Of a stretch of 64,000 nt of DNA, positions 25,900 to 27,977 are shown piece by piece. Origin of the DNA: Escherichia coli (lineage in GTDB: Bacteria; Pseudomonadota; Gammaproteobacteria; Enterobacterales; Enterobacteriaceae); assembly GCF_003018255.1 (NCBI RefSeq), contig NZ_CP027440.1; one strand, 5' to 3'. A program made the position numbers and the translations under genes. Below the pieces are notes generated by a model. It searched no databases, had not been told where the DNA came from, and was given only the letters and a program-made list of their open reading frames with translations. Numbering within the stretch: position 1 is the first letter of the stretch; every line of letters starts with the position of its first letter.

Positions 25900-27681
25900 G
25901 TGAGCGATATTGTTTACCTGAGAATAATCGGTGAGAAGCAGGGCTATATTTCTTCAGGCTGTGGGACGTATGCGTCGGTTGGTAATTGCTGGCAGGTTGG
26001 CCATGAAGATGAAATTTTTGCCTTTGCACTCACCAACGCCATTACCAGTACTGGTAAAGGCGTTAATCTACAGGGGCTACAATTTTGCAAACTCATTGAT
26101 AAAAGCTCACCGCTACTGTCTAATGCCATCAATCAGAATGAGCGGTTATTTATTGAAATCGATTTGTATCGTATAAATAAAAGCGGGCGCTGGGAACGGT
26201 ATTATTATATTCAGCTAAGAAATGCTTCATTAACTGCTATTCATGTAAACATTTCTGACAATAATCTTCCTACCGAATGTATAACTGTCGATTATGACTA
26301 CATATTATGTAAACATCTAATAGTCAATACGGAATTTGACTGGTTGGCCTTTCCTGCTGGCTATAATAGCTTATTTATTCCGCCTAAAAGCCCACCTGCC
26401 AGTAATCTTAAGCCTGAACCTCTACCAGTTGTTAACCTTCCACTCTCTTCACCAGCGGTTAACCCGGTCTATGCAAAATCCTGTCTGAAGGAGAAGGGAT
26501 GTACAGATGCTGGAACGGCAGAAGAACCCGCTGAAAACTTCGGTCAAGTAGCGATTTTTGCTCAGCCAGTGGTTGATGACTGCTGTGGATACCACCATCC
26601 CGAGGCTAACGATGTCGGGCAACCCGCAGAAGCTCAAACCATGCTACTGTTTCCGGGTAGTGTGTTGGCGGCTCAAATATGGGGAAAATGGTCGCTCAGT
26701 GGCATACTCAGTGCAACCCGCGGCTCTTACATCGGTGCGTTGGCATCTGCTTTGTATATTCCCTCTGCGGGCGAGGGCAGTGCTCGCGTGCCCGGACGTG
26801 ATGAGTTCTGGTATGAGGAAGAACTGCGGCAGAAAGCACTAGCAGGCAGTACCGCCACCACCCGGGTACGTTTTTTCTGGGGAACTGACATTCACGGCAA
26901 GCCTCAGGTGTATGGTGTTCATACGGGTGAAGGTACGCCGTATGAAAACGTCCGCGTGGCGAACATGCAGTGGAACGAGCAGACGCAGCGTTATGAATTT
27001 ACCCCCGCTCACGATGTCGATGGCCCCCTGATTACCTGGACGCCGGAAAATCCGGAACATGGGAATGTTCCGGGCCATACCGGTAACGACAGGCCGCCGC
27101 TGGATCAGCCCACCATTCTGGTGACGCCGATTCCGGACGGCACCGATACCTATACCACGCCGCCATTCCCGGTTCCTGATCCGAAAGAATTCAACGATTA
27201 TATTCTGGTTTTTCCGGCGGGATCCGGTATTAAGCCCATCTATGTTTACCTGAAGGAGGATCTGCGAAAGCTGCCTGGTGTTGTAACAGGGCGCGGCGTC
27301 CCGCTTTCACCAGGAACTCGCTGGCTGGATATGTCGGTATCCAATAACGGCAACGGCGCACCAATCCCGGCGCATATTGCTGATAAATTGCGCGGACGGG
27401 AGTTTAAAACCTTTGATGAGTTTCGCGAGGCGCTGTGGCTGGAGGTGAGTAAAGACTCAGTGTTATTGGCGCAGTTTATAAAAAGTAATCAGAATAACGT
27501 TAGTCAAGGATATTCCCCCTATGTCCCTGAGGAGGGGTATTATTACGGACCAAATGAGATAGTTAAGAAATTCCAGATACATCATGTAGTTGCTATAGAA
27601 CATGGTGGTGGAGTGTATGATATTGATAATTTTAGGATTGTTACGCCCCGACTACATGATGAAATTCACTACAGGAGATAA
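25900..27681 (+). CDS. T6SS Hcp 'extended toxin' effector: N-terminal Hcp domain, Pro-rich/pyocin-S-like middle region, C-terminal colicin E-type HNH DNase
   Basis: 593 aa, GTG start; residues ~1-160 match Hcp family (KLIDKSSPLLSNAI..ERLFIEIDLYRIN..ERYYYIQLRNASLTAIH vs Hcp EIDKSSPYLY..FKWYRI); C-terminus GAPIPAHIADKLRGREFKTFDEFREALWLEVSKD...GYSPY...FQIHHVVAIEHGGGVYDIDNFRIVTPRLHDEIH aligns with colicin E9/E7 and pyocin S DNase ([34 protein letters not shown]...[33 protein letters not shown]). Confidence 0.88.
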   Translation: MSDIVYLRIIGEKQGYISSGCGTYASVGNCWQVGHEDEIFAFALTNAITSTGKGVNLQGLQFCKLIDKSSPLLSNAINQNERLFIEIDLYRINKSGRWERYYYIQLRNASLTAIHVNISDNNLPTECITVDYDYILCKHLIVNTEFDWLAFPAGYNSLFIPPKSPPASNLKPEPLPVVNLPLSSPAVNPVYAKSCLKEKGCTDAGTAEEPAENFGQVAIFAQPVVDDCCGYHHPEANDVGQPAEAQTMLLFPGSVLAAQIWGKWSLSGILSATRGSYIGALASALYIPSAGEGSARVPGRDEFWYEEELRQKALAGSTATTRVRFFWGTDIHGKPQVYGVHTGEGTPYENVRVANMQWNEQTQRYEFTPAHDVDGPLITWTPENPEHGNVPGHTGNDRPPLDQPTILVTPIPDGTDTYTTPPFPVPDPKEFNDYILVFPAGSGIKPIYVYLKEDLRKLPGVVTGRGVPLSPGTRWLDMSVSNNGNGAPIPAHIADKLRGREFKTFDEFREALWLEVSKDSVLLAQFIKSNQNNVSQGYSPYVPEEGYYYGPNEIVKKFQIHHVVAIEHGGGVYDIDNFRIVTPRLHDEIHYRR

Positions 27682-27977
27682 TGTATATGCGTGATTTAAA
27701 AGATAAAATATATTTTTACACAGAAGGTGAATTTCTTGAAATGCTTGAGGAGATAGTAAATGCAACTAGCAAAGATAAATCCCTAAAAGGGAAAAAATTA
27801 GAAAAATATCTCGATACCTTAGTGGATCATTTCATTAAAATTACTGAACATCCTAAAAAGGGAGATCTCATTTTCTATCCTAATTCCCAAGAAGATGGTG
27901 AACCTGAAAACATCCTGAAAATCGTCAAAGAATGGCGGCGTTCACAGGGGCTACCCTTGTTTAAAGACTCTAAATAA
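27681..27977 (+). CDS. Colicin/pyocin DNase immunity protein (Im7/Im9 family), cognate to the Hcp-DNase
   Basis: 98 aa; ATG overlaps toxin stop (TAATG) with AGGAGA RBS; YTEGEFLEML...HFIKITEHPKKGDLIFYP...ILKIVKEWRRSQG matches Im9 (YTEAEFLQLV...HFEEMTEHPSGSDLIYYP...IVNTVKQWRAANG). Confidence 0.9.
   Translation: MYMRDLKDKIYFYTEGEFLEMLEEIVNATSKDKSLKGKKLEKYLDTLVDHFIKITEHPKKGDLIFYPNSQEDGEPENILKIVKEWRRSQGLPLFKDSK

Follow-up and report, generated by a model that had tools for sequence, protein, structure and literature searches.

What does a nuclease toxin gene that begins like a secretion tube protein do between two core metabolic genes of Escherichia coli, how could its product reach a target, and is the arrangement new? 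These questions are raised by a 64,000-nucleotide stretch of chromosome (contig NZ_CP027440.1; hereafter the window), in which an insert of low GC content separates aroP from pdhR. An earlier note on this DNA had read a 593-aa open reading frame (ORF) within the insert as an Hcp-like N-terminus fused to a colicin E9/E7-type DNase, followed by a translationally coupled gene for a 98-aa immunity protein of the Im7/Im9 kind, and had placed the pair in a core-genome intergenic region outside any cluster for a type VI secretion system (T6SS). We identify the ORF as usp, which encodes Usp, the uropathogenic-specific protein, and the insert as the island PAIusp. It is very likely, in our assessment, that usp and the imu genes of this island encode an Hcp-borne polymorphic toxin made of three parts, with Imu1 as its immunity protein and with orphan toxin-immunity cassettes further downstream.

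The domain composition of Usp was established by profile searches, which the earlier note had called for. Its N-terminus matches NCBIfam TIGR03344 (TssD) over residues 1-145, with 120.6 bits against a cut-off of 58.9, in addition to Pfam T6SS_HCP (PF05638; residues 28-139, E 5e-13) and the Hcp structure 6a2v in the PDB (E 3.7e-15). Further along the chain, a Pyocin_S domain covers the full length of PF06958 (positions 1-139 of 139, E 3e-40), its closest solved structure being PDB 3mfb (E 3.8e-18). The C-terminus covers the whole of Pfam Col-Pyo_DNase (PF21431, formerly PF12639; positions 1-124 of 124, E 6e-43) and matches the DNase of colicin E9 (1bxi_B, E 2.3e-33), with the residues at E9 positions H102, H103, N118, H127 and H131 all conserved in the alignment. 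The two toxin assignments made from the raw sequence, Hcp-like at one end and colicin DNase at the other, are thus borne out. NCBIfam NF047924 (VPA1263_T6SS_effector) also matches Usp, residues 199-590 aligning with profile positions 375-711 (E 4e-63); this match is confined to the C-terminal half of the model and, at 214 bits against a cut-off of 900 bits, fails to place Usp in that family. The GC content of the gene is itself a mosaic, being 0.39 in the Hcp part, 0.53-0.56 in the linker, the Pyocin_S domain and the first half of the DNase, and 0.37 in the variable C-terminal cassette (CT1), which suggests that usp may have been assembled from parts of differing origin. The same ORF appears in the RefSeq annotation of a genome with an island that matches that of the window at 100% identity.

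Experiments by others have shown that UspI of strain Z42 is a non-specific DNase when free, that its HNH motif is indispensable and that uspI is toxic to the point that it could not be maintained without the orfU genes (PMC3685522). The Pyocin_S domain has a demonstrated role in inner-membrane translocation (IMT) in pyocin G, a role that has been proposed for Usp, which is cited as a T6SS example of an IMT domain (PMC9040868).

The gene that adjoins usp, imu1 (orfU1), encodes a protein of the Pfam family Colicin_Pyocin (PF01320, E 2.7e-28). Comparison of Imu1 with the immunity proteins Im7, Im8, Im9 and that of pyocin AP41 gave E-values of 1e-14 to 1e-20, among them 8e-20 (1cei_A) and 1.2e-19 (1ayi_A) for Im7 and 1e-20 for the AP41 protein, and the sequence DLIFYP of Imu1 aligns with the hotspot DLIYYP in helix III of Im7, in agreement with the Im7/Im9-like protein that had been predicted. 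The usp stop codon overlaps an ATG at 27681 in the sequence TAATG (27679-27683), and an AGGAG Shine-Dalgarno sequence within the last usp codons lies 4 nt before this ATG and 10 nt before a second ATG at 27687. RefSeq annotates the start of imu1 at 27687 (96 aa) whereas the usp literature gives a protein of 98 aa, so that imu1 begins 0-6 nt past the usp stop codon. Hence the TAATG noted earlier is present and the two adjacent genes are probably translationally coupled, but the start codon at which imu1 is read is ambiguous. A tight complex of Usp with OrfU1 has been demonstrated by others, who inferred that OrfU1 serves UspI and that OrfU2 serves UspII (PMC3685522).

The insert extends over 4.4 kb (about 25400-29780) and has a GC content of 31-40% at both ends and 53-56% in the middle of usp, the flanking genes having 52-56%. 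The window runs from mraY to yadV and, when compared over its whole length, is collinear with the chromosome NZ_CP116067.1, in which the island is 100% identical and the flanks about 99.3% identical; the position of the insert between aroP and pdhR in this collinear region upholds the core-genome intergenic location. Three RefSeq genomes contain an island 100% identical to that of the window. The mismatches that separate the window from NZ_CP116067.1 are unevenly distributed: bins of 2 kb have 0-1 of them at about 26-40 kb, whereas many bins elsewhere have 13-58. The pattern resembles a mosaic produced by recombination, in which different lineages share the island and the pdh operon.

PAIusp is defined as a low-GC insert of about 4 kb between aroP and pdhR that contains usp and two or three imu genes (PMC7142922). 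The insertion site, the low GC content, the 593-aa Hcp-Pyocin_S-DNase protein and the three imu genes of the window all correspond to it, and the sizes of Imu1, Imu2 and Imu3 (98, 97 and 96 aa) are those published for orfU1-3 (imu1-3) of strain Z42 (PMC3685522). UTI89 has a homologous gene at the same aroP-pdhR site, the two Usp proteins being 93% identical overall. We searched complete E. coli genomes for the island and found it in 1,046-1,058 of 5,426 (about 19%), always on the chromosome. An identity as Hcp-ET1, the Hcp-HNH effector of Shiga toxin-producing E. coli, was rejected: the HNH domain of Hcp-ET1 is a plain one (PF01844) without the pair of Pyocin_S and colicin DNase domains, unlike Usp, and both the combination of Pyocin_S with Col-Pyo_DNase and the locus in UTI89 lead to Hcp-ET3-4/Usp. 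The title of the earlier note likewise fits Hcp-ET3-4 and not Hcp-ET1. Judged from sequence, the island is PAIusp, in a uspI arrangement with three imu genes that we take to correspond to subtype Ia, and would have been acquired horizontally. The locus is already known, PAIusp having been described in 2000-2002. The finding is therefore correct but not new, since the published locus, biochemistry and promoter match it, and the novelty implied by the earlier note fails, usp/imu having been known since 2000.

Alignment of the region downstream of imu1 revealed two further modules, giving a total of three in-register modules of about 690 bp. The homology of usp with the orphan fragments begins at a 15-nt block, TGGCTGGAGGTGAGT, which encodes W513-L-E-V-S517 (the LWLEVS junction), is invariant in all three modules (27436-27450, 28127-28141 and 28817-28831) and coincides with a fall in GC content from 0.56 to 0.37. 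The Usp proteins of the window and UTI89 are nearly identical before residue 517, and almost all differences between them lie downstream of the junction. In colicin E9 numbering the block corresponds to W58-S62; CT1, which follows it, aligns to the segment of E9 that includes the named immunity-contact residue Phe86 and also contains the HNH motif. The immunity-contact region of E9 presumably spans about residues 72-98, with the junction roughly ten residues before it. Because the block precedes this region, a swap at the junction would change toxin specificity and immunity together.

The first orphan fragment, CT2, shares about 92% identity with the UspII C-terminus of UTI89, matches NF047924 (E 1e-10) and has neither a Shine-Dalgarno sequence nor an ATG of its own. 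In the second, CT3, Tyr stands in place of the first His of the HH pair, and the last two His residues are lost through a 1-nt deletion; all six other strains compared have the identical lesion. Polymorphic toxin loci with orphan modules have a published definition (PMC4436062), and the window contains its elements: a constant N-terminus, a variable C-terminus with its immunity gene, and CT/immunity modules downstream. The earlier note is incomplete in this respect, omitting the two orphan modules and the 15-nt junction as well as the Pyocin_S domain. We tentatively suggest, as one possibility, that the genes beyond imu1, namely imu2 and imu3, belong to a cassette system in which recombination at the junction swaps specificity together with cognate immunity, and that at least three natural Usp specificities exist, in place of the two published ones, uspI and uspII. 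Cassette exchange at the LWLEVS junction would account for the uspI and uspII subtypes.

The order of the modules varies between strains. FDAARGOS_1267 has the same series as the window (CT1-imu1, CT2-imu2, decayed CT3-imu3), SCU-484 has CT1-imu1 followed by decayed CT3-imu3, and UTI89 and TUM1586 have CT2-imu2, decayed CT3-imu3 and a truncated CT with imu1. In Ecol_867 there is a third CT with an Imu2-like gene, followed by three more modules, and the same CT is present in CU568-3 (O25:H4); we take this arrangement, common to the two strains, to be the ST131 type. The distribution of the C-termini was determined with 300-nt queries spanning the junction, which were compared with 1,058 usp-positive complete genomes. 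About 301 of these had the CT1 of the window fused to full-length usp (at least 95% identity) and about 189 carried the CT2 of UTI89 (at least 99%), the latter count being blurred because the search joined usp and orphan pieces in some genomes. The commonest C-terminus was the third CT (SQEPELIAQFSEINQLRISQGFTPFAPDEGHYIG...), fused to usp in about 554 genomes (at least 99%), or about 52%. This CT differs from CT2 across the stretch that aligns with the immunity-contact region, and the Imu2 encoded after it differs from the window Imu2 by one residue in the 94 aa that they share and is without the 3-aa C-terminal tail. The recombination events proposed here are deduced from these comparisons between strains. 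Subtyping into uspI and uspII and into Ia, Ib, IIa and IIb has already been published. In CU568-3, usp is disrupted by the IS66-family element ISCro1 (6041-8656 of the locus), which sits shortly upstream of the DNase C-terminus, and the imu genes are intact.

Comparison with known systems places the locus of the window closest to PAIusp itself, for which Z42 provides the prototype and UTI89 the uspII form: the site, domain order, 593-aa protein, imu sizes and low GC content are the same. UTI89 has uspII followed by imu2-imu3-imu1 whereas the window has a uspI C-terminus followed by imu1-imu2-imu3, and otherwise nothing substantial differs. As in Hcp-ET effectors generally, Hcp is joined to a C-terminal toxin, with an immunity gene downstream, away from the T6SS cluster. 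The pairs of colicins E9, E7 and E2 with Im9, Im7 and Im2 have, like Usp and Imu1, a full DNase with the HNH residues and a four-helix Im protein with the hotspot motif, and pyocins S2 and AP41 likewise carry a Pyocin_S domain upstream of the nuclease; in Usp, however, Hcp replaces the N-terminal receptor-binding and translocation parts of these bacteriocins. In contrast to colicin loci, usp is chromosomal, is not accompanied by a lysis gene and gives no evidence of an SOS box, and it has orphan cassettes, reportedly absent from colicin loci (PMC4436062). VPA1263, an antibacterial T6SS DNase of Vibrio parahaemolyticus and the namesake of NF047924, is alike in its Pyocin_S and colicin DNase half but differs in its N-terminal delivery domain. 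The tandem promoter-less toxin 3' fragments with immunity genes and a short shared block of homology resemble the arrays of Rhs, CdiA and MafB; unlike in those systems, the piece swapped at usp is about 76 residues within one nuclease fold and not a whole toxin domain of another activity.

No T6SS gene was found in the 64-kb window, in line with the earlier statement that the pair lies outside a T6SS cluster. In NZ_CP116067.1, a complete-looking T6SS cluster is located at the aspV tRNA gene, about 118 kb from usp (25141-50000 of the extracted locus); its 159-aa Hcp is 39% identical to the Hcp domain of Usp, and the 172-aa Hcp of the same cluster 25%. The literature counts Usp as an 'evolved Hcp' polymorphic toxin (PMC4436062), and UTI89_C0121 has been described as Hcp-ET3-4, an antibacterial effector with three immunity genes downstream (PMC6730261); we take T6SS dependence and the name Hcp-ET3-4 from reviews of Ma et al. 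2017. The proposal that the ORF and its neighbour form a Hcp-borne T6SS effector-immunity pair agrees with this published view (PMC4436062, PMC6730261). In the mechanism that we propose, usp would be transcribed from the P3 promoter of aroP and Usp co-translated with Imu1, which would block the DNase in the producer and protect kin. Through its Hcp domain, Usp would either be built into the T6SS tube or be carried within it, the secretion system being encoded elsewhere in the genome, and the Pyocin_S/IMT domain would probably help the nuclease across the inner membrane of the target. There the colicin E9-like HNH DNase would degrade the chromosome non-specifically, unless the recipient had a matching imu gene. 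Orphan imu genes may widen immunity to other Usp variants, orphan CTs may serve as a reservoir for switching, and orphan cassettes may be exchanged for the 3' end of usp through recombination at the LWLEVS junction.

Several observations weigh against an Hcp-borne antibacterial toxin neutralised by Imu1. The VasL gene of the aspV cluster is frameshifted in NZ_CP116067.1, and the T6SS cluster is known from this closest genome, the coverage of the window's own genome being 64 kb only. A review from 2015 states that evidence for secretion of Usp is lacking (PMC4436062). With regard to immunity, another group detected no high-affinity complex of Usp with Imu proteins and proposed instead that Imu3, for which DNA and RNA binding was reported, shields DNA (PMC3917654). 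Moreover, purified Usp applied from outside killed none of the E. coli strains tested, and neither did the Usp-OrfU1 complex (PMC3685522), although the failure of the purified protein to kill is expected of a toxin delivered by contact.

That last result bears equally on the idea that Usp is a bacteriocin which is released and diffuses like a colicin or S-pyocin and enters through an outer-membrane receptor; from such a toxin, killing by the purified protein or complex would be anticipated. Parret and De Mot reportedly proposed this reading of Usp in 2002, and S-pyocins and E colicins indeed have Pyocin_S and DNase domains and an immunity gene in common with the usp locus. Usp, however, lacks both a receptor-binding domain and an unstructured N-terminus for translocation, there is no lysis gene, and the N-terminus of Usp is instead an Hcp domain that scores above the family cut-off; we consider a diffusible bacteriocin very improbable. 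An inactive relic, with the toxin dead or no longer expressed, is to our mind barely conceivable. H-NS silencing has been reported (PMC7142922), the GTG start of usp is not preceded by its own Shine-Dalgarno sequence and an IS66 element lies inside the gene in some strains, yet in the window the ORF is intact at 593 aa with all catalytic residues present, conservation of usp extends to about 19% of complete E. coli genomes, and published work shows the uspI allele to encode an active nuclease that is lethal without the orfU genes (PMC3685522).

Alternatively, the main target of Usp might be the mammalian host cell, on which it would act as a bacteriocin-like genotoxin and thereby serve uropathogenic E. 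coli (UPEC) as a virulence factor; such a role would be compatible with a T6SS route. Purified Usp or usp-positive bacteria are reported to cause DNA damage and caspase 3/7 activation in human cell lines, usp is enriched among isolates from pyelonephritis, prostatitis and bacteraemia, and the gene is induced by urea and at 37 °C (PMC7142922, PMC4436062, PMC3917654). The architecture, on the other hand, is that of an antibacterial polymorphic toxin, with cognate and orphan immunity genes and a domain for crossing the inner membrane, and diversifying toxin-immunity pairs make sense solely against bacteria that are able to carry immunity. We know of no route by which Usp enters eukaryotic cells. 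A primary role against the host is in our view possible but rather unlikely, and we prefer the reading of Usp as an Hcp-borne polymorphic toxin directed at bacteria, the features of which are listed in Table 1.

Table 1. Features of the usp/imu island and its surroundings; positions are those of the window unless another locus is named.
Feature	Position	Strand	Basis or remark
aroP	24001-25374	-	left flank of insert
TyrR-box-like site	25445-25462	+	consensus match
Candidate aroP-divergent P3 promoter, TTTACG-16-TATGAT	25457-25484	+	consensus match
usp, allele uspI (Usp, also Hcp-ET3-4)	25900-27681	+	GTG start, 593 aa; ORF list
Hcp/TssD domain, residues 1-145	25900-26334	+	profile matches
Pyocin_S domain, residues 309-450	26824-27249	+	PF06958
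Colicin/pyocin HNH DNase domain, residues 460-591	27277-27672	+	PF21431
Cassette junction TGGCTGGAGGTGAGT (W513-L-E-V-S517)	27436-27450	+	module alignment
Variable C-terminal cassette CT1, residues 518-593	27451-27681	+	strain and E9 alignments
imu1 (orfU1)	27681-27977 (98 aa) or 27687-27977 (96 aa)	+	Im family, PF01320
Hairpin after imu1, 13-bp stem	28002-28034	+	dG -15.8 to -17.7 kcal/mol across the three hairpins
Orphan toxin fragment CT2	28127-28372	+	HNH residues intact, without N-terminal part
imu2 (orfU2), 97 aa	28375-28668	+	directly after uspII in other strains
Equivalent hairpin after imu2	28684-28716	+	
Orphan toxin fragment CT3, decayed	28817-29065	+	weak NF047924 match, E 3e-4
imu3 (orfU3), 96 aa	29066-29356	+	intact orphan immunity gene
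Equivalent hairpin after imu3	29379-29415	+	
pdhR	29812-30576		right flank of insert
Third CT and Imu2-like gene, Ecol_867	5040-5569 of Ecol_867 locus		
Third CT and Imu2-like gene, CU568-3	8747-9276 of CU568-3 locus		
PssrA	9052-9141	+	Rfam match above gathering score
STnc40	14788-14857	+	Rfam match above gathering score
naRNA4	15373-15450	+	Rfam match above gathering score
tp2	30621-30734	-	Rfam match above gathering score; antisense in pdhR-aceE spacer

Work by others has shown that P3, which is divergent from aroP, is the sole promoter of usp and that it is activated by TyrR and repressed by H-NS (PMC7142922). When the region from 25300 to 29850 was scanned for promoters and terminators, 12 promoter-like and 4 terminator-like sites were obtained, as expected from shuffled sequence, and a search of the region for TyrR boxes gave 20 matches where 26 were expected. 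Because the scans are at chance level, the assignment of P3 to 25457-25484 rests on the published promoter (PMC7142922) and the TyrR site at 25445 is not claimable from the letters of the DNA. Inspection of the start region (25863-25902) confirmed the absence of a Shine-Dalgarno sequence for the usp GTG itself; instead, AAGGA is found 8 nt before a mini-ORF of two codons, ATG-AAA-TAA (25890-25898), which ends 1 nt before the GTG at 25900. Since this arrangement is conserved in UTI89 and Ecol_867, coupling of the mini-ORF and usp by termination and reinitiation is possible. The hairpins that follow the three imu genes were inspected for a T-run and none was present; they are therefore not canonical terminators.

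The PADLOC defence models gave zero matches to Usp and to every Imu protein, and usp/imu is therefore not a catalogued anti-phage system. An Rfam search found no RNA family inside the island. The four Rfam matches in the window (PssrA, STnc40, naRNA4 and tp2) are ordinary E. coli small RNA annotations, all of which lie outside it.

As a discovery the locus amounts to little, usp having been a standard virulence marker of extraintestinal pathogenic E. coli and UPEC for 25 years and its product having been known as a DNase effector fused to Hcp since about 2015-2017; the architecture of the domains and the logic of toxin and immunity were nonetheless read correctly from the raw sequence. The part that is still of note is the cassette structure, comprising the LWLEVS junction, the orphan CT2, the decayed CT3 and the third CT with its Imu2-like gene. 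This structure offers a simple explanation of the disagreement between the tight Usp-OrfU1 complex seen by one group and the absence of a high-affinity complex in the hands of another. The pairing of the third CT with a nearly identical Imu2 raises the question of cross-immunity, and the cassette structure suggests a matrix of Usp variants against Imu proteins.

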